Of a stretch of DNA of 64,000 bases, positions 37,806 through 61,047 are shown in pieces (positions within the stretch are counted from its first letter, which is position 1; each line of letters begins with the position of its first letter). The stretch lies in the sequence record OZ346164.1; one strand, given 5' to 3'. The translations under genes and the position numbers were made by a program. Under the pieces are notes generated by a model. That model did no database searches. It was not told the origin of the DNA and worked only from the letters and a program-made list of their open reading frames with translations. This DNA is from a phage.

Positions 37806-38354
37806 ATGAAGAAATTGATTCTAGGTTTGTGCTTAATGTTTACAGCACACTTATCTTATGCAGTTGACTGCCCAGAGCTATCAATTAGCCAAAAAGTAAA
37901 CATGTTAAAAGCTTACCAGTATGGTGAGAATAACATGGGTAAAGGTTGGGGTATCACTCTAGCTGCTATAGCCTTACAAGAGTCAGAGTTAGGTCTGAAG
38001 GTAGAGAATAAAAAGACACATGACTATGGTATTTTCCAGAATCACTTGAAGACTGTTGTAAAGCGTAACAAAATCAGTCCTAATGTGGCTAAAAAGAAAC
38101 TCTTAAAAGATTTTGATTATGCTGCGAAGGAAACGCACAAAGAACTTGAGTTTTGGACAAAGGTGCATGGTCAGCCAAAGTCAAAGAAGGCTTTACAAAA
38201 AGTTTTAGCATCTTATAATGCTGGGTATTCGTACAGAATCCCTAAAGCTAAGAAATATTCTCAAGATGTCTATAACAATATGAAAGTAATTGCTCAATGT
38301 GAATTTGCAACAAACATTTCTAAGGTAAACCATGAAAAAATTAAGAAAGTCTGA
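37806..38354 (+). CDS. secreted protein, possible lytic transglycosylase
   Basis: Signal peptide; LQESELG...DYGIFQ resembles SLT catalytic region. Confidence 0.35.
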   Translation: MKKLILGLCLMFTAHLSYAVDCPELSISQKVNMLKAYQYGENNMGKGWGITLAAIALQESELGLKVENKKTHDYGIFQNHLKTVVKRNKISPNVAKKKLLKDFDYAAKETHKELEFWTKVHGQPKSKKALQKVLASYNAGYSYRIPKAKKYSQDVYNNMKVIAQCEFATNISKVNHEKIKKV

Positions 38355-39027
38355 TGAAGTACTGTGTCATGCTTATGACTTACATCCTCATGAGTTGGGT
38401 CTTGATTCCTGTGTATGGACTCCAGAACAGTGTAGAGACTTTGAAGACACCGCAAGAGAAGTTGTATGTTCACTTGAAGAGTTCCACACATCAGAACCAA
38501 TTGTGAACGTTGTGGACAAAGAGACTGGGCAATCCATAGGTGTAAAACGTGATAGCTTAGTCATAGTCAACAAAGACCTTGTAGAGAAAGGTAATCTTAT
38601 CTTAGCAGATATTGATGGAGTTCTTACAAATTTTAATCACGAAGATTGTTCAACGGAATTGACTGATGGTTCATTTTCACAGTACACTAATCTTCTTGAT
38701 TCTGTAAGAGCAAAACCAACGTATGTTTTCAATATCATTGATGCAATTGCTAATCATGCTGCCGTTGGACTCTTGACAGCGAGAGGCGAATCTCAGAGAA
38801 TACCCACTGAGATGTTTTTAAGGCATAACACAGAGCATAACTACATGCTTTTTATGCGTGGTTTTGGTACTAACTCTATAAGTGCAGAAAGTTTGAAAGT
38901 GAGGATGATTCAGTCTTGCATTCTGCCTTACTTTAATATAGTATGTTTTATAGAAGATACAGAGAAGAATGTGCAGAAGGTGAACAGAATCCTTCCACAC
39001 ATCAAAACCATGTTAGTTAAACATTGA
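38332..39027 (+). CDS. hypothetical protein
   Basis: 231 aa ORF. Confidence 0.35.
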   Translation: MKKLRKSDEVLCHAYDLHPHELGLDSCVWTPEQCRDFEDTAREVVCSLEEFHTSEPIVNVVDKETGQSIGVKRDSLVIVNKDLVEKGNLILADIDGVLTNFNHEDCSTELTDGSFSQYTNLLDSVRAKPTYVFNIIDAIANHAAVGLLTARGESQRIPTEMFLRHNTEHNYMLFMRGFGTNSISAESLKVRMIQSCILPYFNIVCFIEDTEKNVQKVNRILPHIKTMLVKH

Positions 39028-39037
39028 GAGAAAACTT

Positions 39038-39502
39038 ATGAACAATATCATTACGGTAGCACTGGACGTTACGGCAAACAAATCTGAAGTAGTTCGTAAC
39101 ATTATCAAGAGCAACTTTGAGGGTAAAATCTTCCGTGCTGTCAATGTAAAAGCAGACGGCAACATCCGAGAGTATCGTGCTCTTTTGAATGTTAAGAAAC
39201 ACGTAAAAGGTTCTGGTTCAACGACAGCACACAAAGAAAACCTGATGACCATCTATGATATGGGGATGGCTTCAGAATTAGGTGCTGAAGGTATCGTTAA
39301 AGAAGGTGCTCCGTATCGCTCTTTCAATCTGGAAACTGCTCTCATGCTTTCCTTTACAAGTGGTTCTAAAACAACTACTTATCTCTTTACTGATGCTGCA
39401 ACGGTATCTGCTATCAAGGATAGCACTGTCAAAGCTGGGGTAGCTGCTGCTGCAAAAGCTTCTTCGATGGCTGCAAATGTCCTTGCTAAAGTCCTCGGTT
39501 AA
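39038..39502 (+). CDS. hypothetical protein
   Basis: 154 aa ORF followed by terminator. Confidence 0.4.
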   Translation: MNNIITVALDVTANKSEVVRNIIKSNFEGKIFRAVNVKADGNIREYRALLNVKKHVKGSGSTTAHKENLMTIYDMGMASELGAEGIVKEGAPYRSFNLETALMLSFTSGSKTTTYLFTDAATVSAIKDSTVKAGVAAAAKASSMAANVLAKVLG

Positions 39503-41055: not shown

Positions 41056-41841
41056 ATGGGTATTGTAAAAATCATCAATGGCGATATCTTTGCCGCATTT
41101 GATAAAGGTAAGTTTGACATTATTGGTCACGGTTGCAACTGTATGAATTTAATGGGTGCAGGTATCGCTGACAAGATTTCTAAACTTTACCCAAAAGCAT
41201 ATGAGACAGATACAGAAGTCTATCTATATGCAGGTGGCATAGGTCACAAACCCTGTGAAAATTTACTGGGTAATTTCTCTGTAGCACGTTTAAAACAAGG
41301 TCGTATAGCTAACCTTTACACTCAGCTTAAGACTGGTAAAGATGCCCGATACAGTGCTTTAGAGTCATCTTTGAAGCAACTTAACAGATACTGTGAAGTT
41401 AATCAGTTGAAGAAAGTTGGTTTACCTATGATTGGTGCAGGTATCGGTGGACTTGACCCTCAAGCCGTCACAGTTATCATCAATCAGGTGATGAAGAGCG
41501 TAGATGTTTATCTATATGTCTATGAAGGAGAGATGTACCATAAGTTACTCTCAGGTTGGAAGAACTACTGTGAACCAGAATACTTTGCAGGTGTAGCAGT
41601 GTTCACAGATAACGCAGTTACCCTCTTCAGACGAAGAAAAGGTAAGATACATCAAAGTAACCCTCCGGTTGAAAAGATGTCTCTAAGTAACGCTCTAGTT
41701 ACCCACCTGTCAAAGAGCAATCACAGAATTGCTGTAACATTTGGTAGTGATGCAGAAGCTTATATCTATGCAAGAACTGATGAGGATATTGAGGCAATCT
41801 TCTCTTCACCAGAAGTTACCTTCTTAGACGCAAAGAACTAA
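41056..41841 (+). CDS. macro-domain-like protein
   Basis: N-terminal INGDIF...GHGCNCMNLMGAGIA resembles macro (ADP-ribose binding) fold signature. Confidence 0.4.
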   Translation: MGIVKIINGDIFAAFDKGKFDIIGHGCNCMNLMGAGIADKISKLYPKAYETDTEVYLYAGGIGHKPCENLLGNFSVARLKQGRIANLYTQLKTGKDARYSALESSLKQLNRYCEVNQLKKVGLPMIGAGIGGLDPQAVTVIINQVMKSVDVYLYVYEGEMYHKLLSGWKNYCEPEYFAGVAVFTDNAVTLFRRRKGKIHQSNPPVEKMSLSNALVTHLSKSNHRIAVTFGSDAEAYIYARTDEDIEAIFSSPEVTFLDAKN

Positions 41842-41910
41842 GAAACTCTGTAGGATATTCACAATAGACTAAGCCTTTCTTATCTGGTAAATTTTTCAGG
41901 TAAGGAGGGC

Positions 41911-42093
41911 TTTTTCATTTCAGATTTGTGCAGGTAGAGTTCTGTAGAGAAATCTATAGAGAAAATTTTGAACTCCAAAGAGAAAATTCATTCTCAAACT
42001 GTGCAGGTAATCTCCAAAGAGCTTTTTCATTTTCAAAACGTGCAGACCCCGCTCAGGTCGGGCAAGAAAAATCATTTTAGAATTGTGCAGGTA
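41911..42093 (+). repeat. four direct repeats TTTTCATTTT-N-TGTGCAGGTA
   Basis: Copies at about 41911, 41983, 42022 and 42066, each ending in (T)GTGCAG(GTA). Confidence 0.6.
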
Positions 42094-42107
42094 GGTTTTT
42101 ATAGACA

Positions 42108-42150
42108 GCCAGCCCAACCCCTCTCCCCCTCTTACTCCCCCTCTCCCCAA
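42108..42150. repeat. C-rich tract (G-rich on minus strand)
   Basis: CCAGCCCAACCCCTCTCCCCCTCTTACTCCCCCTCTCCCC; five or more G-runs on complement. Confidence 0.6.
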
Positions 42151-42269
42151 AAGTCAAGAGAAAAATTTGTAGCGGATTGAAAAATAATTCTTGATTTGCG
42201 TTCTGTTTTGTGGTAGTCGTGCGCACCCGTTTCATTACAGTTTTGCCAAAAATATTTTTAAAATTTTTA

Positions 42270-42364
42270 TTGACTCTTTGAACGTGGTTATCTAATATTT
42301 GCATCAACGGAGAGGGAATAACCTTCCCCACTAAATAACTAACCTTAAACTAGGAGACTCTAAA
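42270..42364 (+). promoter_or_regulatory. type-A cassette: promoter + hairpin leader + RBS
   Basis: TTGACT-17-TAATAT then GAGAGGGAATAACCTTCCCC hairpin, ACTAAAT, TAAACTAGGAGA, ATG. Confidence 0.55.
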
Positions 42365-42745
42365 ATGGCATATCGTGCACCTAAATTCATCAATAAAGAC
42401 AACTTTCGCAACGCACTGGAGAAGGCACTTGATGAGAATTTCAAAGGTAACGTTATCGTTGTTCACTCGTTCAATTTCAAGTATGATATCAACGGGAACA
42501 AAATCAACCACTACACTGCAACCATGCTAGATGGTACACTATCAAGTGAAAAAGCCGTACTGAATGCACTAGCAGGACGCGGAAAAGTATTAGTAAGATG
42601 TGATAAGAGACGTTATCAAGGCGGCGCATATGGTTACGACGATGCTATTTATCATCTTGAAAATATGGGCTATCAAGTAGAAAAAGCTGGGGTATCACAA
42701 ATCATCGGTAGTGATGGCTACGTGACAATCTTCAAAATTAAATAA
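42365..42745 (+). CDS. small early-type protein
   Basis: 126 aa, behind type-A cassette. Confidence 0.5.
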   Translation: MAYRAPKFINKDNFRNALEKALDENFKGNVIVVHSFNFKYDINGNKINHYTATMLDGTLSSEKAVLNALAGRGKVLVRCDKRRYQGGAYGYDDAIYHLENMGYQVEKAGVSQIIGSDGYVTIFKIK

Positions 42746-42833
42746 AAAGTACTTTACAAGGGGCTTATAGTTCGATAAAGTAAGCCCCAGATAAAGAGCT
42801 TTACCACTAAATCCTAAATTGGAGAACTTAAAA
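42746..42833 (+). repeat. type-B cassette: GC hairpin + conserved leader + RBS
   Basis: AAAGTACTTTACAAGGGGCTTATAGTTCGATAAAGTAAGCCCCAGATAAAGAGCTTTACCACTAAATCC...GGAGA. Confidence 0.55.
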
Positions 42834-43124
42834 ATGGCTACTATCAAAAACGTTGTAATTCCTGCAAAAACTCGTGATGACGCTCGCATTATGGCTAAAA
42901 AGTTAGGCGGGAAAGTGGTTGACAACGGAAAACAATCTGCTGTAAGATGGGGCGTGAAGACTGATAGACAGTTGAAGTTAAAAAATTCACCAATAAACCT
43001 TTTTACATGTGTAAACACTATCGGGAAGACAAATGTATACACGAAAAAGGCATATATTAGACGCGTAGCCTTAACATCCCCCATTCGTACAATGAGAGGT
43101 TATGCAAAACTGAAAATTAACTGA
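42834..43124 (+). CDS. small early-type protein
   Basis: Start placed at conserved ATG after cassette RBS rather than track start 42819. Confidence 0.5.
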   Translation: MATIKNVVIPAKTRDDARIMAKKLGGKVVDNGKQSAVRWGVKTDRQLKLKNSPINLFTCVNTIGKTNVYTKKAYIRRVALTSPIRTMRGYAKLKIN

Positions 43125-43212
43125 TAAAGTACTTTACAGGGGGCTTAAAAGTTGGTATCTTAAGCCCCAGATAAAGAGCTTTACCACTAAATCCTAAACT
43201 GGAGATTCAAAA
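43125..43212 (+). repeat. type-B cassette
   Basis: Near-identical copy of 42746..42833. Confidence 0.55.
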
Positions 43213-43725
43213 ATGAAAACTGTAGACGCTACCTTTGAAGTTGTAAAAGAAAAATTCACCATTATCTATGAAGCGGTAAATTGCTACGAAGCAAGCCATA
43301 ACCTTGATAATTGGAAGTTTACAGATGACCATCAAGGCGGCGTGACTGTTAAAAATCCTAACTATCAGCATAATGCATTTAAATATGCAATCCCTTTGCA
43401 TTACAGCCTTAAACAGCTTTCAAGTGACTATGCAAAACAAGGCCGGGAAAATCCATCGAAAGAGGCTTACACCAGCTTACAGAAAGAACTAGAAAGAGAT
43501 TTAGAGGCTTCAGAATACAACCTTGCCGCGAAAGTTGTGGATGCAAACGGTAACACGGTTTTAGAAAGTTTTTATCTTGGTTATGCTTTCGATTGGTGCT
43601 ATCGTGACGGCGATGATTTAGAGGATAGACTAAAAGAAGAGGTGAACAATTCAGACGCAGAAACTGAAGTATTAGAACGTTTGGAATCGTTGAAAGACTC
43701 AGTGATGAATATCTTTAAGAACTAA
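43213..43725 (+). CDS. small early-type protein
   Basis: 170 aa behind type-B cassette. Confidence 0.5.
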   Translation: MKTVDATFEVVKEKFTIIYEAVNCYEASHNLDNWKFTDDHQGGVTVKNPNYQHNAFKYAIPLHYSLKQLSSDYAKQGRENPSKEAYTSLQKELERDLEASEYNLAAKVVDANGNTVLESFYLGYAFDWCYRDGDDLEDRLKEEVNNSDAETEVLERLESLKDSVMNIFKN

Positions 43726-43817
43726 ATAGCTTTCTTTACACGGGGTTATCAAGCTGGTAGGATAGCCCCAGATAAAGAGATTTATCAAATAAAGCCCTTA
43801 AACTAGGAGATTCTAAA
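43726..43817 (+). repeat. type-B cassette (variant)
   Basis: GGGGTTATCAAGCTGGTAGGATAGCCCC hairpin then conserved leader. Confidence 0.5.
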
Positions 43818-44114
43818 ATGAAATTATCAAATCAAGTGCGTGAAAATCTGAGCAAATTACTCAACAAAATTGATTTCATTGAAACATCAAGGAATAGTCA
43901 TGATGTTATGGAATGGTTACACGGCAAAATAAAAGGCCGTCGTGTAGTGATTTGCTTATGGAATAGTTGCAGGGAATATAAAAAACCTGTATTGCAAGTT
44001 AATATTTATGATGATACTTTTAAAAGTCCTGTAAAGTCTAAAAGCGATTTATTAGAATCCTATGAGATAACTGTAAATGGCAAAGTATCACGTAAAGAGG
44101 AAACACCATGTTAA
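43818..44114 (+). CDS. small early-type protein
   Basis: 98 aa. Confidence 0.45.
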   Translation: MKLSNQVRENLSKLLNKIDFIETSRNSHDVMEWLHGKIKGRRVVICLWNSCREYKKPVLQVNIYDDTFKSPVKSKSDLLESYEITVNGKVSRKEETPC

Positions 44115-44440
44115 TGACTGGTATCACTGCAATCATTGCCATTTTCGCGCTATATAAGGCATATAAAGCCTATAATCTAGCAAATAAGGCAATCACACAG
44201 CAGGTCAGCAATAACCTTGTAGAGAGCTTTCTAGGGCGTCTCAGTGATGAGCAAATAAAGCGGCTAGAGATGAGCTTCAGATACAAAGCGAAAACCTATC
44301 AGATAAGTGACATCTTCAAAGATGATTTTCAGTTAATCGATGATTATAATTCACTAATAAATGCTTTAAATATCAGTGACTTAAAAGACTACTACGCTGT
44401 AATTGTTCAAGAATTGAGCAAACGAAAACAAAACTGTTGA
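44108..44440 (+). CDS. small membrane protein
   Basis: 110 aa, N-terminal TM helix; overlaps previous gene end. Confidence 0.4.
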   Translation: MLMTGITAIIAIFALYKAYKAYNLANKAITQQVSNNLVESFLGRLSDEQIKRLEMSFRYKAKTYQISDIFKDDFQLIDDYNSLINALNISDLKDYYAVIVQELSKRKQNC

Positions 44441-44530
44441 CACTGGTTTTTAGATAGATTAAATTACACATCAACGGGGAGGGAATGACCTTCCCCACTA
44501 AATAAAGTCCTTAAACTAGGAGATTCTAAA
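44436..44530 (+). promoter_or_regulatory. type-A cassette
   Basis: TTGACA-17-TAAATT then GGGGAGGGAATGACCTTCCCC hairpin leader and AGGAG. Confidence 0.55.
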
Positions 44531-44803
44531 ATGTATACTACTAACAACGGTCGCACTTTAAATGTCACACTACGTCACTATGTAGATGGTGTCATGCACT
44601 TTGAAGACTTACAAGCTGAGCAACATATCTTAGATTGGCAAGTAGCAGGACTCCAAAAAACTGCTACGGGATACGGTAAAAAGATTCCAACCAGTTGGAA
44701 AGTACACTACGAAGGACGTTTGCGCAGAATTTATCAGGATGTGCAAAGCAATAGCGCATCGAGTTACATTATAGTAAAAGGCAAAAAACTGCATTTAATG
44801 TAA
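44531..44803 (+). CDS. small early-type protein
   Basis: 90 aa. Confidence 0.45.
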   Translation: MYTTNNGRTLNVTLRHYVDGVMHFEDLQAEQHILDWQVAGLQKTATGYGKKIPTSWKVHYEGRLRRIYQDVQSNSASSYIIVKGKKLHLM

Positions 44804-44889
44804 AGTACTTTACATGGGGCTTGGAAGTTGATATCTTAAGCCCCAGATAAAGAGCTTTACCACTCAATCCTAAATTGGAGAACTTAAAA
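44804..44889 (+). repeat. type-B cassette
   Basis: GGGGCTTGGAAGTTGATATCTTAAGCCCC hairpin then conserved leader. Confidence 0.55.
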
Positions 44890-45294
44890 ATGGCTATTAA
44901 TAACCGTGAATTATCAATGTTAAAAGCACGTTTGACCGTTAATCGAATCAACATTATGACATCATCAGCGCCTGATGAGACATTGCACAACATTATCGGA
45001 AAGATTCAAAGCGTTATTTTAGACGTTGAAAACGTAAAAAGTTCATTGGCTGACGTTGCAGCAGGTATCACGCTAGACGGTGCGCAATATGAAATGTCCG
45101 ACATGTTAGGCAAATCAAAGGTAATGAATAAAGAGCTTGATTTAAAGATGTTCCGATTTGCTGTTAAAGTATGGCTATCCGTCGAGTATGACGCTAATTT
45201 TGCAATCGCTGATTTCTTTGCCACTTGGTTACAACGTAATTTGACAAATCACGATTTTCGTGATGTCTGTGATGCAATTTATGCAGAACTCTAA
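44890..45294 (+). CDS. small early-type protein
   Basis: Start at conserved ATG (MAINNREL) rather than track start 44875. Confidence 0.5.
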   Translation: MAINNRELSMLKARLTVNRINIMTSSAPDETLHNIIGKIQSVILDVENVKSSLADVAAGITLDGAQYEMSDMLGKSKVMNKELDLKMFRFAVKVWLSVEYDANFAIADFFATWLQRNLTNHDFRDVCDAIYAEL

Positions 45295-45303
45295 AAAATT
45301 TTG

Positions 45304-45395
45304 TTGACACTGGTTTTTAGATAGATTAAATTACACATCAACGGGGAGGGAATGACCTTCCCCACTAAATAAAGTCCTAAACTGGAGATTCTAAA
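45304..45395 (+). promoter_or_regulatory. type-A cassette
   Basis: Identical to 44436..44530 over about 85 nt. Confidence 0.55.
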
Positions 45396-45599
45396 ATGGC
45401 TATTATTAACGGTTTAACCATTGAAACTACACACATCAAAGATATCAAAGTTGGCGATATAGTCCTTTCCCACGGCGTAGAAAAAACTGTCACTGCAAAG
45501 GATATCAAAGAGGATTCTTTCATGGGTAGGACTCTTTTCGGTGATTCTTATTGCTTAGGTTACCTTGCAGTTTTAAAAGTTGTCAAAAATAACAAATAA
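45396..45599 (+). CDS. small early-type protein
   Basis: 67 aa. Confidence 0.45.
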   Translation: MAIINGLTIETTHIKDIKVGDIVLSHGVEKTVTAKDIKEDSFMGRTLFGDSYCLGYLAVLKVVKNNK

Positions 45600-45683
45600 A
45601 GTACTTTACATGGGGCTTATAGTTCGATAAAGTAAGCCCCAGATAAAGAGCTTTACACAATCCTTAAACTAGGAGATTAAAAA
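45600..45683 (+). repeat. type-B cassette
   Basis: GGGGCTTATAGTTCGATAAAGTAAGCCCC hairpin. Confidence 0.55.
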
Positions 45684-45932
45684 ATGATGAATTATTTCAA
45701 TATCCCTGATACCTGCCGACTGTTGACACGAGAAGAAAACTTGGGTAAACCTTTTCTTTACCACATGCCAGATAACACACCAAAAACTTATAGTTACAAT
45801 GTCAACCGTTTTACCGCATACGCTGCAAAGAACGGTTATAAGTTGGTCACTCAAAAAGTAATGCTGGTTACAATCGCTGACGAGGTTCCTACGGTTGCAG
45901 TTAAACTAATTTTCTCAAAGAAAGTTAAATAA
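45684..45932 (+). CDS. small early-type protein
   Basis: 82 aa. Confidence 0.45.
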   Translation: MMNYFNIPDTCRLLTREENLGKPFLYHMPDNTPKTYSYNVNRFTAYAAKNGYKLVTQKVMLVTIADEVPTVAVKLIFSKKVK

Positions 45933-46016
45933 AGTACTTTACAAGGGGCTTATAGTTCGATAAAGTAAGCCCCAGATAAAGAGCTTTACACAATCCTTAA
46001 ACTAGGAGATTCAAAA
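45933..46016 (+). repeat. type-B cassette
   Basis: Identical hairpin and leader to 45600..45683. Confidence 0.55.
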
Positions 46017-46559
46017 ATGAAATGCTATCACGGAACTACTCAAGAAAATTTCCTCAACCTGATTAATAACGGTGATAAACCATCAGGCGCATGGAATTGT
46101 TCGGATATGGACGGCAATTTTTACGTGTATCCAGAAAATAAAATCTATGGCGACGATGAGGAAGAAATAGCATCAGAGGGCATTCAGCAAGCTCTAGGCA
46201 ATGCCACTATCACCGCAGCTTTTCAGATGAAGACTCAAAATATTGTTATCTTAGAACTCGATATTCCAGAGGATGAGCTAAATGATGATTATTCTTGTGA
46301 TAATATGTCGAGTGTAGCAAGTTTTACAGAGTACTTTGATGTAAATTGGATTAAAAAGGTCTATACAACAGAGTTTAACGCTATGTATTCACCTTTTTGT
46401 CTTCCTTCATTGGATAACCCAAATTTAAACTATCTTGATGAGCCTCTGGAGCTTCTTGCTAAAAGTGTCCAACAGTCGGACAGTATTCAGGTTTTTTGTG
46501 ACATCATGGACACACTAACGGGAAACATCGCAGAAGAGGATTTAAAGAGCTTTTTCTAA
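46017..46559 (+). CDS. small early-type protein
   Basis: 180 aa acidic protein. Confidence 0.45.
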   Translation: MKCYHGTTQENFLNLINNGDKPSGAWNCSDMDGNFYVYPENKIYGDDEEEIASEGIQQALGNATITAAFQMKTQNIVILELDIPEDELNDDYSCDNMSSVASFTEYFDVNWIKKVYTTEFNAMYSPFCLPSLDNPNLNYLDEPLELLAKSVQQSDSIQVFCDIMDTLTGNIAEEDLKSFF

Positions 46560-46591
46560 AAACCTATGCAATCGCCTTATAAACACTGATT

Positions 46592-46612
46592 AGCCCCTCA
46601 CAGGGGCTTTTA
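46592..46612 (+). terminator. terminator-like hairpin
   Basis: AGCCCCTCACAGGGGCT followed by TTT. Confidence 0.4.
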
Positions 46613-46625
46613 AGAGGCTTAAATC

Positions 46626-46859
46626 ATGCTTACAACCGTTTATCTTATCCTTTCTATTTGTAATGGTCATTCATGTGATTTTAAAGGGCTTGATGAGTTT
46701 ACAGGAAGTAAAGAAAATGCTGTTCAGGTCTGTCAGATAGCAAGGCAAGACTACCCCGCCAGTGATGACATACAATGTTACTTTAAGACAGAAGATGAAG
46801 ATGGTATCTATTTCGATAGTGTAGACGGTCAATATGAAATAATTATAGAAAAAGACTAG
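46626..46859 (+). CDS. small Cys-containing protein
   Basis: 77 aa. Confidence 0.4.
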   Translation: MLTTVYLILSICNGHSCDFKGLDEFTGSKENAVQVCQIARQDYPASDDIQCYFKTEDEDGIYFDSVDGQYEIIIEKD

Positions 46860-46948
46860 ACAAGCCTGATAAAAATCTGTAAATTACTAATCAACGGGGA
46901 GGGAATGACCTTCCCCACTAAACAAAATCCTAAACTGGAGATTCAAAA
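46857..46948 (+). promoter_or_regulatory. type-A cassette
   Basis: TAGACA-17-TAAATT then GGGGAGGGAATGACCTTCCCC hairpin leader. Confidence 0.5.
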
Positions 46949-47290
46949 ATGGCTTATGTAACCGTAATTACCGATAAAGCTGGCGCATCTTGGTCAACTC
47001 AGGTTAGTGATAAGATGTCGCCTATGCAGTGCCTAAAATACTTTGAACAGTGGAACAAAGGCGAGGACACAAGCCCCTTTCACGTAATGCAGATTATTCA
47101 TGTAGACAATGAAGGGAAGAAAACAACCCTGAATAGTGAGTACTACGCAAGCCGTTTTGAAACGAGAAGTAAAGCAATGAAGCTCTTACGTGAGGCCGGA
47201 TATGGTCACATTGCCGCGATAATCTGGGATGACCTTCTAAAAAGTCAACGTATCAGCTATGTAAAGCCTGAAAAAATATTCATCAGTTAA
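46949..47290 (+). CDS. small early-type protein
   Basis: 113 aa. Confidence 0.45.
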   Translation: MAYVTVITDKAGASWSTQVSDKMSPMQCLKYFEQWNKGEDTSPFHVMQIIHVDNEGKKTTLNSEYYASRFETRSKAMKLLREAGYGHIAAIIWDDLLKSQRISYVKPEKIFIS

Positions 47291-47419
47291 TCAATAACTT
47301 ACAAAAAACTTTTAAAAAAGTGTTGACAATACCCCTTGACATTGGTAACTTTGTTCGAGGGGGTTTATCTAAAAGGGATTCACTTAAAAGATTCTTTATA
47401 GATAAGCTTAAAAAATTGC

Positions 47420-47509
47420 TTGCAATCAGCTATCAAAACAAGTAAATTACTAATCAACGGGAGGGATGACCTCCCCACTAAATAAAATCCTTAAACTAGG
47501 AGAGTCAAA
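47420..47509 (+). promoter_or_regulatory. type-A cassette
   Basis: TTGCAA-17-TAAATT then GGGAGGGATGACCTCCCC hairpin leader. Confidence 0.5.
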
Positions 47510-48040
47510 ATGAACAAGTTTAAAGCTATCAACTTCATTCGTTCAAATGCTGTAATGTCAAAACCTGTAAAAGACACATACGAATTTCGCTGCAATGGGG
47601 TACACTTTGCAACCATCACTAAGTCAGAAAACGGGGCTTATTACGTACATCGTCGTAATGTTGCAACCGTTGTAGTCTCTCACTTTATGCAAGCTGTAGC
47701 GGAGTTATTACCGTTATTCTTAGAGATTTATCTAGGTGAGTGTAAAAACGTTCGTAACCACGTTAAAAACCTTTTAAACGGTTATAAAATGGCTTATGAA
47801 CGTTCTATCAAGTCCTTGAACAAGTTCTATAAAGCCCCTGTAAATACTGTTTCAATGGCTTACAGTGTAAGCGGTGAGTTGGTTAGCCTCTTCGAAGTAG
47901 AAGAAATTGAACTATATGACTCACGTCCTAGCGGTTACTCTAAGACACTGGGAGAAGGATTATCTTTCAATATCAAGAACTTAGAAAAAACTTTAAAAGA
48001 TATTGAAAAAGATATTGACGAAACAATAAAAAGTCTGTAA
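47510..48040 (+). CDS. small early-type protein
   Basis: 176 aa. Confidence 0.45.
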   Translation: MNKFKAINFIRSNAVMSKPVKDTYEFRCNGVHFATITKSENGAYYVHRRNVATVVVSHFMQAVAELLPLFLEIYLGECKNVRNHVKNLLNGYKMAYERSIKSLNKFYKAPVNTVSMAYSVSGELVSLFEVEEIELYDSRPSGYSKTLGEGLSFNIKNLEKTLKDIEKDIDETIKSL

Positions 48041-48108
48041 ATTACTAATCAACGGGGAGGGAATGACCTTCCCCACTAAATAAAACCCTTAAACTAGGAG
48101 ATTCAAAA
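48014..48108 (+). promoter_or_regulatory. type-A cassette
   Basis: TTGACG-17-TAAATT (inside end of previous gene) then hairpin leader. Confidence 0.5.
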
Positions 48109-48357
48109 ATGGCAACTATCCGCGCTACTGTTAACGAGTTCGGTTTTTCCTCTCTGGATGTTAAATTTGACATTGTAGGCACTGATAACGCCTTTGAAAT
48201 GGTGAAAGGTCTTATCAGTCAGACCATCAAAGGCTATAATCCTTCTAATGAGTTCTGGGAGGAAACAAAACAGGAAGTTCTTAAAGAGGGTTATTCTTTT
48301 CACTATTGGGGTGAAAAAATTGTCTCCCTGTACTACGACAAAGAAGGCACTAACTAA
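48109..48357 (+). CDS. small early-type protein
   Basis: 82 aa, last gene of array. Confidence 0.45.
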   Translation: MATIRATVNEFGFSSLDVKFDIVGTDNAFEMVKGLISQTIKGYNPSNEFWEETKQEVLKEGYSFHYWGEKIVSLYYDKEGTN

Positions 48358-48395
48358 TCCACGCAGCGGGGCTAAATAGCCCCAGATACCTTTAC

Positions 48396-48423
48396 AGCCC
48401 CTTTCCCATAGGGGCTTTTTTAC
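48396..48423 (+). terminator. rho-independent terminator
   Basis: AGCCCCTTTCCCATAGGGGCT hairpin plus T-run; ends small-gene array. Confidence 0.6.
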
Positions 48424-48425
48424 GT

Positions 48426-49398
48426 CTATCCAATCCTCATACAACCCCTTTCCCTTTCCTTTCCAGAATCTTATCAGACCTTAAAAAGCAATAACTTTAC
48501 AGCCTTTTACTAAGTCAATTAATTGGCCTTATTAATAAGCCCTTAAACATAAGCCAATAACCCCAGAAAGGGGGCAACCCATTTAAACGCCATATAAAGC
48601 CCTATAACGGCCTTTTTAACCTAACTTAAGGGATTGCATTACCTCACCCTTAAAAGCCCTTTATAAAGCTTCACAGAGCCTTAAAAGAATCTTATAAGGG
48701 TGTGTTAAGACTTTTGAAGATTTGTTAAGAGCTTGAGAGAGTTGTTAAGAAATTGTTAAGGATATTTTAAAATTTTGCAAAGTACTTGTAAGGGAGCTGT
48801 TAAGGGCTACCAAGCAGATATACATCTTCTACAGATATTTTTCAGTTCCTTCAAAGACCCTAAAAAATGACTTGATAGTCCTATTTTATAAAAATTTTAA
48901 GATTCTGAATAATTACCTAGACAGTCTTTTAAAAATACAGGTAATAACAGGCTTATAAGATACCTTGTTAGTACCGTGTTAGACCTTGTGAGATAAGGTC
49001 TGTAAAGATATTCCTGTTAAGTTTGTTAAAACAGTCTATATAGAGGCTTAGTAATACCTAGTGAACACCTATAGAGGGTATCATAGCTAACCTAGAGATT
49101 AAGAGGTGTATAGGAGCTTCTAAGAGGGTATAGAGAGATGGTTAAGGTGATTGTATAGGTTGTTAAGAAGGCTTGTTAGAGGGCTTGTTAGAAGGGTTAT
49201 ACAGAGGGCTATTAAGACCACTAGATAGTTACTAAGATACTATATAGTACTATATAACTATATAGAGAGTAAGATTAAGAGGGTTGTTAAGAAGGATAGA
49301 TATTTTGTTCACATATGCTGGTGACCCAGAGGTTGGGACAACCGATGGAATTTTATAAAAATTAAAAAGCCCCCAATTAAGGAGGCTCTTAAGATATT
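48426..49398. repeat. about 1 kb non-coding region with dense short direct repeats
   Basis: No ORF of 60 aa or more on either strand; many copies of CCTTAAAAG-like, TGTTAAGA-like and TATAGAG-like units. Confidence 0.7.
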
Positions 49399-50004
49399 TT
49401 AAATCAGACTTTCTAAAACTGTTTTTAGTGATGACTTGGTTGTCTGATAAAAATGAGTGAATCCGTTGTTGTTATCGAATATCTGCATCATAACAGCATC
49501 TCCCTTGATTGGGTACACTCGGATATCATAGTGAAACCCATTAAAGACAGCAGAACCATTACAGAATACACTAAAATCACTTGCTGAGATATACTCTTCA
49601 TGACCTGTGATTTTTATACAGACACCTTTACTCGGTCTCTTAGGGTTGATATCTTCCATAATAGACATACTCTGTCCACCAAGAGATACCATAGTGACCA
49701 CTTTACGGTTCTTCTGTCTGAAGTACATTTTAACCTTCTGCAAGGTGTCTTCATAGAACGGATAAGACTTCTCTACAAAGATTCCTTCAAGTGGCTCTTT
49801 ACCGTTTACAATACCTCTGGTATGGCGTACTGAGAAGATAAGTTGCTCTAGCAGGTCAAGGCTTTCTTCGGATAGTGCTTCCCGAATATCGCTCCAGTCA
49901 AGTACTAGGTAGTTACCTTCAACTTCTTTTAAGTTATCTTTTTCCATAGCTATCACACCATTATCGTAAAACTTGGTAGGCTGGTACTGCAAACTTGTTG
50001 CCAT
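49399..50004 (-). CDS. hypothetical protein
   Basis: 201 aa ORF. Confidence 0.4.
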   Translation of the reverse strand: MATSLQYQPTKFYDNGVIAMEKDNLKEVEGNYLVLDWSDIREALSEESLDLLEQLIFSVRHTRGIVNGKEPLEGIFVEKSYPFYEDTLQKVKMYFRQKNRKVVTMVSLGGQSMSIMEDINPKRPSKGVCIKITGHEEYISASDFSVFCNGSAVFNGFHYDIRVYPIKGDAVMMQIFDNNNGFTHFYQTTKSSLKTVLESLI

Positions 50005-58630: not shown

Positions 58631-58708
58631 TCTCTGTTTAGCTCAGCTTGGTAGAGCGTTCCGTTTGGGGCGGTAAGGCCGGAGGTTCAAGTCCTCCAAC
58701 AGAGACCA
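58631..58708 (+). tRNA. tRNA-Pro (anticodon UGG)
   Basis: 7 bp acceptor, D stem GCTC/GAGC, loop TTTGGGG, T arm GGAGG-TTCAAGT-CCTCC. Confidence 0.75.
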
Positions 58709-58715
58709 AATTAAT

Positions 58716-58793
58716 GTTCCAGTAGACAAAATGGTATAGTCACCACTCTTTCAAAGTGGATATCTGAGGGTTCAAATCCCTTCTGGAACGCCA
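58716..58793 (+). tRNA. tRNA-Glu (anticodon UUC)
   Basis: Acceptor GTTCCAG/CTGGAAC, anticodon stem CCACT/AGTGG, loop CTTTCAA, encoded CCA. Confidence 0.75.
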
Positions 58794-58883
58794 GTTTTGA
58801 CAGAAGACCAATTACAGCAAACTTAATCTACTCATCTGAAAGTTAATCGGACAAAGAAGATATTTGGTCTGGTCATTAAGAAT

Positions 58884-58960
58884 TGCGGGTATAGAGAAAG
58901 GGCGTCTCACATGTCTCATTAGCATGGTATCGGCAGGTTCGACTCCTGCACCCGCCTCCA
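58884..58960 (+). tRNA. tRNA with anticodon CAU (Met or Ile2), 1-72 mismatch
   Basis: Loop CTCATTA, T arm GCAGG-TTCGACT-CCTGC, acceptor pairs 2-7 only. Confidence 0.6.
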
Positions 58961-59042
58961 AATTTACAGAAGACCGTTTACAGCAATATTTATTAAATTT
59001 TTAGCGGAAAAATTGAAAGATACGGTCTGGTAATACTAAATA

Positions 59043-59120
59043 TGGTTAGGAAGCACATAAGGTATGTGCGGTCGCCTGTTAAGCGAATGGCACAGGGTTC
59101 GAATCCCTGACTAACCGCAA
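59043..59120 (+). tRNA. tRNA-Asn (anticodon GUU)
   Basis: D stem GCAC/GTGC, loop CTGTTAA, T arm CAGGG-TTCGAAT-CCCTG. Confidence 0.7.
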
Positions 59121-59128
59121 AATTAAAT

Positions 59129-59216
59129 GTGTCGTTATCCCGTAGATGGTAGCGGTGGGGACTGTAAATCCCTTGTCATTGAGACTCGGTAGGTTCGACT
59201 CCTACACGGCACACCA
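59129..59216 (+). tRNA. tRNA-Tyr (anticodon GUA), long variable arm
   Basis: Acceptor GTGTCGT/ACGGCAC, loop CTGTAAA, about 15 nt variable arm, encoded CCA. Confidence 0.75.
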
Positions 59217-59221
59217 ATAAA

Positions 59222-59298
59222 GGCTATGTAGTTTAACTGGAGAAAATACTCCCCTGTCACGGGAGATGATGTGAGTTCAAGTCTCATCGTAGCCGCCA
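59222..59298 (+). tRNA. tRNA-Asp (anticodon GUC)
   Basis: Acceptor GGCTATG/CGTAGCC, stem CTCCC/GGGAG, loop CTGTCAC, encoded CCA. Confidence 0.75.
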
Positions 59299-59499
59299 AT
59301 TTTGAGAGGGCTATTTAGCCCCTCCCTTAAAGAGTTCTTACGAGTATTCTTTAAAGGAGCAGAAGACCAAATACAGCAAGAATGTATGATATTTTCAAGC
59401 CAATTCAATTTTGAAAAATTTAAAACTTGGTCTGGCTCAACAAATTTACAGAAGACCGTTTACAGCAAAACTTAAACAATCTATTTCTCGGTAAAGAAA

Positions 59500-59540
59500 A
59501 GGCGAAGGTTCGATTCCTTCACTCGGCAGAGGTCGAGTTG
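59500..59540 (+). ncRNA. tRNA-like T-arm plus acceptor minihelix (not a full tRNA)
   Basis: GAAGG-TTCGATT-CCTTC T-arm-like hairpin directly followed by ACTCGGC-AGAG-GTCGAGT hairpin and D-loop-like GTTGGTGTAATGGTAG. Confidence 0.4.
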
Positions 59541-59730
59541 GTGTAATGGTAGCACTTAAGATGATAAACAACGGTCTGGTAATTATCTTTGCAGTAGCTT
59601 ATGTGGCTAATTATGTCGTCCCATGAGTGCCGATGAATTTCCTTAGCATGATTCTAGATTAGCTTAATAGGAAATGACTCTACAGACCCTTTAGCAAGGT
59701 CTGCGTAGGTTACTGCAAAGATGATTTAAT

Positions 59731-59806
59731 GGAAGTGTAGCAGAATGGTGATGCGGCAGACTTTTAATCTGACAGGCGATGGGTTCGAATCCCTCCACTT
59801 CTACCA
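59731..59806 (+). tRNA. tRNA-Lys (anticodon UUU)
   Basis: Acceptor GGAAGTG/CACTTCT, loop CTTTTAA, TTCGAAT T-loop, encoded CCA. Confidence 0.65.
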
Positions 59807-59811
59807 AAAAT

Positions 59812-59888
59812 GGTTCAGTCGCAGATAAGGTAATGCAAGGGTTTCATAAGCCCTATGAATGTGGGTTCGATTCCCATCTGAACCTCCA
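59812..59888 (+). tRNA. tRNA-Met (anticodon CAU)
   Basis: Acceptor GGTTCAG/CTGAACC, stem AGGGT/GCCCT, loop TTCATAA, encoded CCA. Confidence 0.7.
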
Positions 59889-59890
59889 AT

Positions 59891-59966: not shown

Positions 59967-59982
59967 ATTTCAATAAAGTTGT

Positions 59983-60522: not shown

Positions 60523-60535
60523 AAGTCTTATTAGG

Positions 60536-60958: not shown

Positions 60959-60965
60959 AATTAAT

Positions 60966-61041: not shown

Positions 61042-61047
61042 AACAAT

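Follow-up and report, generated by a model that had tools for sequence, protein, structure and literature searches.

The closest known system to the locus described here is that of the PeSL cassettes of T4-type phages, which form five subclasses according to the position of the stem-loop, including one with the stem-loop overlapping the −10 element and one with the stem-loop downstream of it (PMC2839356). We analyzed a window of 64,000 nucleotides (sequence record OZ346164.1) from a Felixounavirus (Felix O1-like myovirus), which shows 92–93% identity to Felixounavirus genomes. Between 42.27 and 48.42 kb it contains an array of 14 small plus-strand ORFans (g1 to g14), 12 of which are preceded by a cassette of type A or type B. 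Six copies of type A, six copies of type B, and a partial type B hairpin at the array end are present; in sequence, these cassettes are unrelated to the PeSL cassettes.

A preliminary description had interpreted the two repeated families as promoter/leader units ahead of unrelated small genes, and this reading held. Both families were found at the positions given below, in an abundance far beyond chance: within the 64-kb window, the type A core GGGGAGGGAATGACCTTCCCCACTAAA gave five matches with at most 3 mismatches and the type B core GCCCCAGATAAAGAGCTTTAC six, compared to 0 expected for either. The sixth type A copy (47459) carries two 1-nt deletions. All copies are located on the plus strand, a search of the whole window with both cores found no copy outside the array, and the same two families were recovered independently by a repeat search of the window. 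The claim that every small ORF has a cassette applies to 12 of the 14 genes but not to g5, which overlaps the end of g4, or to g11, which follows a terminator-like hairpin.

Type A represents a predicted sigma-70 promoter of the form TTGACA-17-TAAATT. In the copy before g1 (42270–42367), the −35 element TTGACT (42270–42275) and the −10 element TAATAT (42293–42298) are followed by a degenerate hairpin, GGAGAGGGAATAACCTTCCCC (42309–42329), GGAG (42353–42356), and the ATG at 42365; the 3′ part of this recombinant copy resembles the type B leader. The corresponding elements are TTGACA (44437–44442), TAAATT (44460–44465), hairpin 44476–44496, GGAG 44519–44522, and ATG 44531 before g6 (44437–44533); 45304–45309, 45327–45332, 45343–45363, 45384–45387, and 45396 before g8 (45304–45398); and TAGACA (46857–46862), 46880–46885, 46896–46916, 46937–46940, and 46949 before g12 (46857–46951). 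The indel variant before g13 (47420–47512) has TTGCAA (47420–47425), a −10 element at 47443–47448, the hairpin GGGAGG-GAUGA-CCUCCC (47459–47476), GGAG at 47499–47502, and the ATG at 47510. In the copy before g14 (48015–48111), TTGACG (48015–48020), the −10 element (48038–48043), the hairpin (48054–48074), and GGAG (48097–48100) precede the ATG at 48109. The stop codons of g5 and g11 fall within the −35 elements of the g6 and g12 cassettes, respectively.

All transcription starts of both cassette types were predicted solely from the spacing to the −10 element; for type A they are expected near 42306, 44473, 45340, 46893, 47456, and 48051. Among 146 distinct type A copies, 138 have TTGACA, TTGCAA, TTGACG, TTGACT, TAGACA, or TTGATT as −35 element, separated by exactly 17 bp from TAAATT, TAAAGT, TAGTAT, or TAATAT. 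Relative to the predicted start, the hairpin begins at +4 in 130 and at +5 in 14 of the 146 copies. As the predicted start lies 3 nt upstream of the GC hairpin, the latter would form a 5′-terminal mRNA stem-loop. More than 50 different hairpin sequences belonging to at least five stem families all occur at this one position. Most copies contain a G·U pair, a combination that only the plus strand can accommodate. RNAalifold gave no signal for the type A leaders; MAFFT cannot align hairpins differing in length.

Type B had been described as a hairpin plus leader, by which its own promoter was overlooked: TTTACA, the −35 element, which is part of the lower stem, followed after 17 or 18 bp by TAnnnT, the −10 element, which lies inside the hairpin loop. 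TAnnnT at this distance was present in 126 of 127 distinct copies, with a spacing of 17 bp in 116 and 18 bp in 10 cases and with 13 different −10 hexamers. In 65 aligned distinct copies, CTTTACA is invariant, as are the T, A, and T of TAnnnT, the three middle bases being variable. The type B cassette is thus predicted to be a sigma-70-type promoter. A generic promoter scanner detected 6/6 type B and 5/6 type A copies of the window, and the overall number of promoter-like matches in this AT-rich DNA was not much in excess of shuffled sequences (27 versus 19.7 ± 4.7). Erwinia phage SunLIRen has additional families, in which either the −10 element is placed within the loop of a hairpin or a 5′ hairpin is present.

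The type B copy before g2 (42746–42836) comprises a long hairpin (42746–42803), TTTACA (42753–42758), an upper GC stem-loop (42760–42788) with TAAAGT (42776–42781) in its loop, GGAG (42821–42824), and the ATG at 42834. Before g3 (43126–43215), the −35 element (43133–43138), upper stem-loop (43139–43168), −10 element TATCTT (43156–43161), and GGAG (43201–43204) precede the ATG at 43213. The same elements are found at 44809–44814, 44816–44844, 44832–44837 (TATCTT), 44877–44880, and 44890 before g7 (44802–44892); at 45605–45610, 45612–45640, 45628–45633 (TAAAGT), 45672–45675, and 45684 before g9 (45598–45686); and at 45938–45943, 45945–45973, 45961–45966 (TAAAGT), 46005–46008, and 46017 before g10 (45931–46019). 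AAAGTACTTTACA, previously assigned to all six copies, is present in five. The divergent allele before g4 (43728–43820) has TAGCTTTCTTTACA in its place, with the stem GGGGTTAT/ATAGCCCC; here the −35 element (43735–43740), the stem GGGGTTATC/GATAGCCCC (43742–43769), TAGGAT (43758–43763), and a compensatorily changed lower stem, UUUCUUUA/UAAAGAGA, are followed by GGAG (43806–43809) and the ATG at 43818. Predicted type B starts lie near 42789, 43169, 43770, 44845, 45641, and 45974.

The hairpin of type B extends beyond the 8 bp originally reported, because the flanks AAAGU..CUUUA and UAAAG..GCUUU pair as well, resulting in an interrupted stem of ~20 bp with folding energies of −23 to −28 kcal/mol and z-scores of −2.3 to −4.4. 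In this stem, 99.3% of the cells are paired, compared to at most 66% when the partner strand is slid. Compensatory GC↔UA changes were found at one lower-stem pair in 12 sequences and at one upper-stem pair in 4 Erwinia-phage sequences; in the correct register, changes occur at position 7 (UA↔AU, 28), position 8 (AU↔UA, 24), and position 3 (GC↔UA, 9). Pairing is at least 94% at positions 1–9 and drops to 18% at position 10, and the commonest one-sided changes yield wobble pairs (CG→UG, 57; AU→GU, 13). These cell counts overstate the support, as common descent and gene conversion link the copies to one another, and the independent covariation events are few, perhaps four to six. Taken together, the compensatory and wobble-only changes support this stem on the plus strand.

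As the −10 element lies in the loop, the type B hairpin is located upstream of the predicted start, outside the 5′ UTR of its own gene, and would be present only in read-through RNA from upstream. The proposed conserved 5′ UTR shared by unrelated genes is therefore fully correct for type A only, whereas in type B it is limited to the last ~45 nt (AGAUAAAGAGCUUUAC...GGAG).

The array proteins provided no functional lead. A Pfam search gave nothing above the cut-off, all PHROG matches are annotated as "unknown function," and for the six proteins searched (g1, g3, g7, g10, g12, and g13) no sequence relatives were found in the PDB, in agreement with the earlier statement that recognizable domains are absent. 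The genes are g1 (42365–42745, 126 amino acids [aa], phrog_4495), g2 (42834–43124, 96 aa, phrog_5089), g3 (43213–43725, 170 aa, phrog_4190), g4 (43818–44114, 98 aa), g5 (44108–44440, 110 aa), g6 (44531–44803, 90 aa, phrog_3436), g7 (44890–45294, 134 aa, phrog_4327), g8 (45396–45599, 67 aa, phrog_3623), g9 (45684–45932, 82 aa, phrog_9030), g10 (46017–46559, 180 aa), g11 (46626–46859, 77 aa, with its own weak ribosome site), g12 (46949–47290, 113 aa, phrog_4318), g13 (47510–48040, 176 aa, phrog_4725), and g14 (48109–48357, 82 aa, phrog_4559). The g13 stop codon lies inside the −10 element of the next cassette. A weak, sub-threshold BRCT match was seen for g2. The suggested shift of the two "MENLKM" TTG starts (42819 in g2, 44875 in g7) to the conserved ATG was supported, since the profiles span the ATG-started proteins end to end (phrog_5089, 1–85/85; phrog_4327, 1–134/134). 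The notion of a host-takeover or anti-defense locus is guesswork.

Canonical intrinsic terminators are found only at the array borders. The one at 41871–41912, which corresponds to Felix O1 "t13" (PMC3185647, Table 2), closes the upstream operon, and the one at 48396–48416, with a T6 tail, follows the partial type B hairpin (GGGGCTAAATAGCCCC+AGATA, 48368–48383), which was correctly noted before and lacks a promoter. The terminator-like hairpin between g10 and g11 (46592–46608) has a 4-T tail; no U-tract follows any cassette hairpin.

We propose that each module consists of a cassette and one small gene, occasionally two, and that the cassette combines a promoter for host sigma-70 with a single GC-rich RNA stem-loop, a leader rich in A and U, and a GGAG ribosome site 7–8 nt before the ATG, the two types differing in stem-loop placement relative to the promoter. 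General E. coli mRNA biology suggests a stabilizing or processing role for either hairpin. With its predicted position at the extreme mRNA 5′ end, such a role is reasonable for the type A hairpin, which most likely shields the mRNA from 5′-end-dependent decay and in read-through RNA would also serve as 3′ hairpin of the upstream cistron. The type B stem encloses the promoter, whose transcripts would start just downstream of it; its RNA form, made only by transcription from upstream, would terminate the preceding cistron at its 3′ side, most likely as a 3′-end, processing, or insulating structure.

Since the same 60–100 bp recur between genes, always in one orientation, the cassettes may also act as portable homology, in agreement with the PeSL model for T4-type phages. 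An alternative reading, that they are remnants of a mobile repeat inserted at random positions, is contradicted by all 12 relatives compared, in which the cassettes have a single orientation and lie directly upstream of start codons. A gene-order map of 13 phages showed that the modules x3-x1, g1, g2, x8, g8, g9, g10-g11, and x2 are present or absent, that the g2 module is duplicated in Michonne, and that the x3 module has moved. g8 is missing in Felix O1, Michonne, SUSP1, mistaenkt, and Sf13, and g9, which has near-identical type B cassettes on both sides, in Seyj1-1, Mushroom, and Felix O1; g4 and g5 always travel as a pair. Within the array, 27 of 30 junction ends fall in cassettes, which make up 21% of it, although this enrichment is partly trivial, because viable indels must end between genes and the intergenic space consists almost entirely of cassettes. 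Stronger evidence comes from the crossovers mapped at fine scale: they lie inside cassettes, at points that for one module differ between phages, and the g14 cassette is mosaic, combining parts of the two cassettes on either side of module x2 in KhF1, ULIM3, and ASO1A. HSP overlaps of 13–70 bp at the junctions indicate shared homology, and between close relatives a given gene can differ in its cassette allele or even in the cassette type (A or B for g1). This most direct comparative evidence points to the cassettes as recombination points for gene gain and loss, a role left out of account in the preliminary description; recombination or gene conversion between cassettes would delete, insert, duplicate, and move modules with expression staying intact. 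A modular array whose promoter-hairpin cassettes double as recombination points is, in our judgment, the probable overall explanation.

The assignment to an early region agrees with the Felix O1 reverse transcription-PCR data for ORFs 16, 20, 21, and 22, which peak at 5 min, but not for ORFs 17, 19, and 23, which peak at 25 min (PMC3185647); this mixed timing does not separate type A from type B. Overall, the array is likely to be a plastic, presumably early, gene region of this Felix O1-like phage, in which each expression module is self-contained.

A megablast search with positions 42200 to 48450 matched 256 phage records, all of them Felix O1-like myoviruses of the genus Felixounavirus, the best matches reaching 92 to 93% identity over 94 to 98% of the query. 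The map of Felix O1 agrees with the window, the array of 14 small plus-strand genes (g1 to g14) corresponding to Felix O1 ORFs 15 to 23, and genes of the size of rIIA and rIIB are also present. Twenty-five tRNA genes are clustered on the plus strand at 58632 to 63556. When the 125 nt upstream of each of the 14 genes were inspected for the two families of promoter, hairpin, and ribosome-site cassettes, type A was found before g1, g6, g8, g12, g13, and g14 and type B before g2, g3, g4, g7, g9, and g10. The two remaining genes have no cassette, g5 overlapping g4 and g11 coming after a terminator-like hairpin. The statement in the preliminary description that a cassette precedes every small ORF thus holds for 12 of the 14 genes but not for these two. 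Within the 64-kb window the type A core was matched five times at three mismatches or fewer and the type B core six times, with none expected in shuffled sequences in either case; the sixth type A copy differs by two 1-nt deletions. Neither core was found outside the array or on the minus strand across the 64 kb, and a repeat search of the window recovered the same two families. With six copies of each type and none expected by chance, the existence of both families, as originally proposed, was borne out. The array ends with a partial type B hairpin followed by a canonical terminator, and a scanner placed a canonical terminator just upstream of the array, at 41871 to 41912.

The earlier remark that the array proteins have no recognisable domains was confirmed: no Pfam domain was found in the 14 proteins, and each of them matches a PHROG of unknown function. 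Searches of Pfam, PHROGs, and PDB sequences gave no functional match for the array proteins, and none of the six proteins tried against the PDB (g1, g3, g7, g10, g12, and g13) had a sequence relative there. The proposal to move the start codons of g2 and g7 to an ATG was supported by PHROG profiles that span the ATG-started versions end to end. For g2 (42834 to 43124) a match to the BRCT domain stayed below threshold (E = 0.0044; 17.7 bits against a cut-off of 21.3), and homologues were found only in Felix O1-like phages, at 62% identity or more. The AlphaFold model of g2 was poor (mean pLDDT of 63), and a Foldseek comparison of this model with the PDB gave no match at an E value below 0.9; several of the top nonsignificant matches were chains of pre-60S ribosomes.

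The DNA next to the array and one of its spacers showed further features. Directly upstream, at 41056 to 41841, lies the gene of a macro-domain protein of 261 amino acids (Pfam Macro, E = 1e-7), which is called a phosphatase in many records and may have a bearing on host defence or counter-defence based on ADP-ribose. The noncoding stretch from the upstream terminator to the first cassette (41915 to 42150) contains three to four direct repeats of about 24 nt (TCATTTnnnAnnTGTGCAGGTA). The sequence TGTGCAGGTA occurs exactly three times in the window, always within this stretch, and a C-rich tract (CCCAACCCCTCTCCCCCTCTTACTCCCCCTCTCCCC) comes after the repeats; the stretch could be a regulatory or protein-binding array. 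The spacer between g12 and g13 (47291 to 47420) is strongly structured (z = -4.2) and is predicted to hold an extra promoter, TTGACA-17-TAACTT, with its -10 likewise inside a hairpin (CCCCUUGA...UCGAGGGG); another long hairpin comes after it. At this place the phages Michonne, Sf13, and mistaenkt carry a predicted membrane ORF of 46 amino acids (x6), and the window has only a GTG-started ORF of 41 amino acids (47320 to 47445); the spacer may represent a small RNA or a decayed small gene. Downstream of the array, at 48420 to 49400, plus- and minus-strand transcription converge on about 1 kb of noncoding DNA full of short repeats of the types CTTGTTAAG and CTTAACAA in both orientations. A noncoding segment of 593 bp with the same type of repeats, present in Felix O1, KhF1, ASO1A, and Mushroom, is absent from the window at 48703. 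Several GenBank records begin or end near 48420 to 49400, and this may be an origin or genome-end region.

All type A copies of the window have a -35-like hexamer (TTGACA, TTGACT, TTGACG, TTGCAA, or TAGACA) exactly 17 bp before TAAATT or TAATAT, followed by 7 nt ending in TC, then by AAC and a hairpin. Hexamers and 17-bp geometry were kept across 146 distinct type A cores, a set drawn from 47 IMG/VR stretches and 12 GenBank relatives in addition to the window. If the A that follows the TC is taken as nucleotide 1, the first predicted hairpin begins at nucleotide 4 in 130 of the 146 copies and at nucleotide 5 in 14; relative to the promoter, 130 copies have it starting 10 nt beyond the -10 and 3 nt beyond the predicted +1. 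The hairpin sequence itself was variable, with more than 50 versions and at least five stem families: GGGGAGGG..CCUUCCCC; GGGAGG..CCUCCC; GGGGAGG-GAAA-CUUCCCC; GGGC..GCCC or GGGGC..GCCCC; and GGGA..UCCC. The invariance of the position while the sequence changes points to a selected RNA structure, and a common G.U pair indicates that it acts on the plus strand. RNAalifold gave no consensus hairpin for 14 diverse type A leaders, since MAFFT could not align hairpins of unequal length, and type A structure was judged by per-sequence folding and positional statistics in its place.

Transcription usually begins 7 to 8 nt after the -10. We infer that a type A mRNA would begin with pppAAC and continue into the hairpin, that is, it would carry a 5′-terminal stem-loop. 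Hairpins at the 5′ terminus protect Escherichia coli mRNAs against 5′-end-dependent decay, and the type A GC hairpin, about 3 nt from the predicted 5′ end, resembles the stabilising stem-loops of the ompA leader and the T7 gene 10 leader. The latter, known from its use in pET vectors as the T7 phi10 leader, consists of a hairpin, an A/U-rich stretch, and a strong Shine-Dalgarno sequence with a spacer of 7 to 8 nt, and type A has the same layout of hairpin, A/U-rich stretch, and strong ribosome site. Unlike these leaders, type A has a promoter of the host-polymerase kind, shows no sequence similarity to them, and has a 5′ end that is predicted.

In all six type B copies of the window a spacer of 17 bp separates TTTACA from a downstream TAAAGT, TATCTT, or TAGGAT, and all six are listed by a generic promoter scanner. 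An alignment of 65 distinct type B copies from four genera showed CTTTACA to be invariant, as were the T, the A, and the last T of the -10, with three varying bases in the middle. Among 127 distinct copies 13 different -10 hexamers occurred; 126 of the copies have TAnnnT, at a spacing of 17 bp in 116 cases and of 18 bp in 10. At the sequence level, type B therefore has the appearance of a sigma-70-like promoter. The motif TGCTTTA in AAAGTGCTTTACA matches the MotA box of T4; this assignment was rejected, as the box would sit 19 bp from the -10 and not about 12, and the fit of TTTACA at 17 bp argues for an ordinary -35.

The type B -10 sits in the loop of a hairpin, and the predicted start is the A of AGAUAAAG, just past the 3′ arm, which places the hairpin outside the gene's own primary transcript. 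According to RNAfold, AAAGU pairs with GCUUU and CUUUA with UAAAG beneath the GC stem. The whole structure comprises about 19 to 20 bp in three helices, broken by a 1x1 mismatch and a 3x3 internal loop, with folding energies of -23 to -28 kcal/mol and z-scores of -2.3 to -4.4. Type B had been described initially as AAAGTACTTTACA, an 8-bp GC hairpin, and a leader; the promoter and the longer stem had been missed. In the 65-sequence alignment 99.3% of the cells pair, compared to at most 66% when the partners were slid, and double changes between GC and UA were seen at one lower-stem pair (12 sequences) and at one upper-stem pair (four copies from Erwinia phages). In the correct register, stem positions 1 to 9 pair in at least 94% of the 127 copies and position 10 in 18%, with switches between UA and AU at position 7 (28 copies), AU and UA at position 8 (24 copies), and GC and UA at position 3 (9 copies). 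The commonest one-sided changes yield wobble pairs (CG to UG, 57; AU to GU, 13). As these would be C.A mismatches on the other strand, an RNA structure of the plus strand appears to be selected and not a DNA palindrome read by a protein. The mid stem (CUUUA/UAAAG) never varies and thus provides no covariation evidence, which is expected, since one of its arms doubles as the -35. Because the 5′ arm lies upstream of the type B start, the RNA structure would form only in read-through from the upstream gene, whose stop codon is often located inside the lower stem.

Type B occurs in the genera Felixounavirus, Mooglevirus, and Suspvirus and, at 76 to 82% identity, in Kolesnikviruses of Erwinia; type A was detected in Felixounavirus, Mooglevirus, and Suspvirus. 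A scan of IMG/VR with degenerate patterns gave matches on contigs of 54 to 94 kb, nearly all of 73 to 94 kb, consistent with Felix O1-like genomes. Almost all records matched in BLAST searches with the cassettes were of the Ounavirinae type, from phages of Escherichia, Salmonella, Shigella, Citrobacter, and Erwinia; the others were a single Staphylococcus record, a single Campylobacter record, and two further ones, and no T4-type phage was among the matches listed. The record GU169904 ("Staphylococcus phage SA1", 147 kb) holds Felix O1-like type A and type B cassettes at 95 to 97% identity and is probably chimeric or mislabelled. The Kolesnikvirus SunLIRen has an equivalent array (L004, 7000 to 13800) with other cassette families and a different shared leader (AACAACCCTTAtAAAGGAATC). 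One family has the -10 TAAAAT in the loop of GAGGGG..CCCCUC, a second has a hairpin GGGGUUA..UAACCCC after TTGCAA, and in a third a terminator loop holds TTTACA and is followed by a 5′ hairpin. In SunLIRen two families have their -10 in a hairpin loop, and at one junction the loop of a canonical terminator carries the -35 of the next promoter.

Cassettes were mapped and genes clustered in the window and in 12 relatives (KhF1, ASO1A, ULIM3, PHB11, Seyj1-1, Mushroom, Felix O1, Michonne, Sf13, SUSP1, mistaenkt, and SunLIRen). The order of the backbone genes is conserved among the 13 phages and gene content differs, the variably present modules being x3-x1, g1, g2, x8, g8, g9, g10-g11, and x2, where x denotes modules known from the arrays of relatives. 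In the Citrobacter phage Michonne (L003, 4540 to 5060) the g2 module is present as a tandem duplicate with identical type B cassettes ending at 4631 and 5061, a fresh example of the duplication of a cassette-flanked module. The module x3 is located at the start of the array in KhF1, but in Michonne it follows g11. When the window was compared with seven Felixounaviruses by chained BLAST, 15 junctions were obtained within the array, and 27 of their 30 ends fell into cassettes, which cover 21% of the array; overlaps of 13 to 70 bp between the HSPs show that homology is shared where the segments join. The enrichment is in part trivial, as the space between genes is taken up by cassettes and a break within a gene would not be retained; the crossovers were therefore mapped base by base for x2, x3-x1, x8, g9, and g8-g11. 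In the case of x2, the window follows the left cassette through the hairpin and continues with the right one from CCCC/AAAACCC, and the switch lies at the -10 in Felix O1 and just before the Shine-Dalgarno sequence in Seyj1-1. The x3-x1 joint lies at ACTAAAT in the window and at the start codon in ULIM3, the x8 crossover of the window lies inside the cassette before the Shine-Dalgarno sequence, and that of g8-g11 in Felix O1 is inside the cassette as well, at ACTAAAC, immediately past the hairpin. On either side of g9 stands a 90-bp type B copy, and the two are almost identical. Among eight close relatives four loop alleles were found for g7 and five for g10, and g1 is preceded by type A in three phages and by type B in three others. 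Such a pattern of crossovers and alleles would be expected of repeated homologous exchange and gene conversion within cassettes.

The known system to which these units come closest in design is that of the PeSLs, the promoter-early stem-loop cassettes of T4-type phages (Arbiol et al. 2010, PMC2839356; Comeau et al. 2014, PMC4122927). PeSLs combine early promoters of the sigma-70 kind with a Shine-Dalgarno sequence and ATG and with GGGG..CCCC stem-loops, for which five placements with respect to the promoter are known, among them over the -10 and downstream of it; they occupy plastic ORFan regions and mediate indels and mini-circles, and their promoter activity, terminator activity, and mini-circles were shown by experiment (PMC2839356; PMC4122927). 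Five features that define PeSLs at the level of sequence are present in the array cassettes. These are short repeated intergenic units in a plastic region of small ORFans (12 units before 12 of 14 genes); a sigma-70-like promoter with an A/T-rich upstream part, recognised here from sequence alone; a stem-loop of the GGGG...CCCC type, located after the -10 in type A and around it in type B; a unit end formed by the Shine-Dalgarno sequence and the start codon of the next gene; and indel or replacement junctions between close relatives that fall into cassettes. On the other hand, the phages belong to the Ounavirinae lineage and are not T4-like, and there is no evident sequence homology, which makes the cassettes analogous to PeSLs and not homologous. 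Further differences from PeSLs are that only two dominant and highly uniform families are present, that the type B stem extends to about 20 bp, pairing the -35 with the initial transcribed region with support from covariation, and that the type A hairpin is predicted to lie inside the transcript, which argues against a terminator role.

Exactly one GC hairpin is present in every intergenic space, and no U-tract comes after any of them: type A hairpins are followed by ACUAAAU and type B hairpins by AGAUAAAG. The scanner found no canonical terminator at the cassettes, only at the borders of the array. The simplest common reading of the hairpins would be that of RNA-end structures: type A would form a 5′ cap-like hairpin on its own transcripts, and in read-through RNA both types could act as a 3′ hairpin or processing site of the upstream cistron. 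A specific form of such a processing structure, compatible with the preferred reading of the cassettes as expression modules and recombination points, would be an RNase III site like those between the T7 early genes. Read-through RNA would be cut in the internal loop of the long type B hairpin, so that the upstream mRNA retained a protective 3′ hairpin and the downstream mRNA received about the same 5′ end as promoter-started transcripts. The predicted type B structure would resemble T7 sites of the R1.1 type: it is irregular, with three helices interrupted by the mismatch and the internal loop, and is placed exactly between cistrons of a multigene early region, its fold is compatible in geometry with the two-helical-turn hairpin and internal loop of RNase III sites, and the predicted type B start falls on the 3′ side (AGA) of the internal loop. 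However, type B overlaps a promoter, its helices are shorter than those of the T7 sites and A/U-rich at the base, the invariant mid stem contributes no covariation, and no Rfam family was matched; an Rfam scan of 41 to 50 kb gave only a chance-level Phe_leader outside the array (E = 0.8). We therefore consider RNase III processing possible, if on balance unlikely. Somewhat more doubtful is the idea that the stem-loops are terminators or attenuators insulating each module, the role first proposed for the stem-loops of T4-type PeSLs. It can draw on a reporter-tested precedent, a PeSL stem-loop without an obvious U-tract that cut lacZ expression as strongly as rrnB T1 (PMC2839356), on the single GC hairpin in every intergenic space, and on several GenBank records in which the type A hairpin is labelled "rho-independent terminator" after a WebGeSTer prediction. 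Against it stand the missing U-tracts, the restriction of canonical terminators to the array borders, and the annotation of the KhF1 "terminators" on the wrong strand. Moreover, the type A hairpin lies about 3 nt past its own predicted start, inside its own transcript, where efficient termination would abort the gene's own mRNA. Another reading treats the inverted repeats as DNA operators. A dimeric phage or host repressor could bind palindromes overlapping the promoters (AAAGTACTTT, or GGGGCTTA...TAAGCCCC) and thereby switch off early transcription; a perfect 10-bp palindrome, AAAGTACTTT, overlaps the -35, and the GC arms on both sides of the -10 are in a typical operator place. Yet the arms change with pairing kept (GGGGCUUA/UAAGCCCC to GGGGUUAU/AUAGCCCC to GGUGUUUAU/AUAAGCACC), an AAAUU...GAUUU variant worsens each local palindrome and keeps the long-range pairing, and U.G pairs, which are C.A mismatches on the other strand, occur at stem position 5 in 45% of the copies and at position 1 of the lower stem in 87%. 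These observations argue for plus-strand RNA and not for a duplex read by a protein; operators seem very unlikely. The least probable reading of all, which we hold to be barely tenable, is that the cassettes are functionless selfish or passive repeats, for instance a miniature mobile element or what remains of tandem duplication. They are indeed repeated, their copy number varies among relatives, and one module is duplicated in tandem in Michonne. But they have a single orientation throughout, always end at a ribosome site and start codon, never occur inside genes or elsewhere in the 64-kb window, keep promoter hexamers and spacing invariant while adjoining bases vary, are confined in IMG/VR and GenBank to contigs of 54 to 94 kb (nearly all of 73 to 94 kb), consistent with Felix O1-like genomes, and lack terminal inverted repeats and target duplications. 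Operators and mobile repeats were both rejected on the grounds of orientation, position, and wobble pairs.

The preliminary description had favoured a common 5′ UTR as a shared posttranscriptional control or processing signal. In the form weighed here, the hairpin and ACUAAAU...GGAGA of both cassette types would be the target through which one regulator (such as a translational repressor, an RNA-binding protein, or a nuclease) switches the whole block together. The leader between hairpin and ATG is conserved far beyond the needs of a bare ribosome site: Felixouna-, Moogle-, and Suspviruses repeatedly have CCUUAAACUAGGAGA or CCUAAACUGGAGA there, and Erwinia phages have the related CCCUUAUAAAGGAAUC. 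GGAG is located 7 to 8 nt before the ATG in all 12 cassettes, and ribosome sites of the GGAG type were found for 10 of 12 scored array genes compared to 24 of 97 genes elsewhere in the window. Leader conservation, however, can also stem from common descent and gene conversion. The primary transcripts of the two families share no hairpin, since that of type B precedes the predicted start, and the fixed position and diverse sequence of the type A hairpin fit a generic structural role better than sequence-specific recognition. Neither a RegB-like nuclease nor another candidate regulator was found adjoining the array. We considered an enzyme in the style of T4 RegB that would cut GGAG within early ribosome sites, and dropped the idea as unsupported; the neighbouring gene called "endoribonuclease" in some records has no RegB or nuclease match in Pfam or PHROGs, and no RegB-like nuclease was found among the neighbouring genes at 37806 to 39502. 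The original interpretation thus stands for type A, but for type B it misplaced the hairpin and missed the promoter, and the role in recombination was missed altogether; we regard a single regulator of the block as about as doubtful as module-insulating terminators. A combination of these ideas appears less probable still. Type B would have a dual use, as DNA promoter and as RNA processing switch (e.g., an RNase III site) giving read-through RNA the promoter-type 5′ end, and the resulting uniform leader (ACUAAAU...GGAGA) would be the operator for a putative phage factor shutting the early block off together. If this were true, the cassettes would be more than promoter and hairpin, namely a compact "standard part" coupling insulation, expression level, and coordinated shut-off.

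In the genome paper of Felix O1, "direct repeats" were reported between genes 15/16, 19/20, 18/19, and 20/21 (Whichard et al. 2010, PMC3185647). These are the present cassettes, CTTTACATGGGGCTTAAAAG...CCACT (57 bp) corresponding to type B and TTGACACTGGTTTTTAGATAGATTAAATTACACATCAAC (39 bp) to type A. In the paper they appear simply as repeats, not as promoters, hairpins, or recombination sites, and the organisation of transcription is described as unknown (PMC3185647). In RT-PCR, ORFs 16, 20, 21, and 22 peaked at 5 min, and the peak of ORFs 17, 19, and 23 came at 25 min (PMC3185647); the block is thus broadly early, and the timing does not separate type A from type B. GenBank records annotate only consensus-like type A promoters, and the hairpin of type A is entered in them as a terminator, which KhF1 places on the wrong strand. 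Our literature search found no paper calling the repeats promoter-hairpin cassettes or PeSLs and no transcriptome or start-site mapping for Felix O1-like phages. The annotation is now corrected with respect to hairpin "terminators" directly after promoters or on the wrong strand, unannotated type B promoters, and two wrong start codons.

The PeSL-type design, in which repeated units of promoter and stem-loop serve both the expression and the shuffling of small accessory genes, is not restricted to T4-like phages: with unrelated sequence, it is found again in another subfamily of myoviruses. This suggests convergence on a solution that keeps a fast-changing region of accessory genes functional. 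The array cassettes are a tidy case of convergence with PeSLs, one unlikely to come as a great surprise to phage specialists. Typing and biocontrol of Salmonella and E. coli make wide use of Felix O1-like phages, and the analysis provides testable promoters and RNA structures that cover an entire block of early genes. For phage engineering, the cassettes mark points at which accessory genes can be swapped and represent compact parts for strong expression. The finding is thus useful for the biology of Felix O1 as well as for annotation and engineering.
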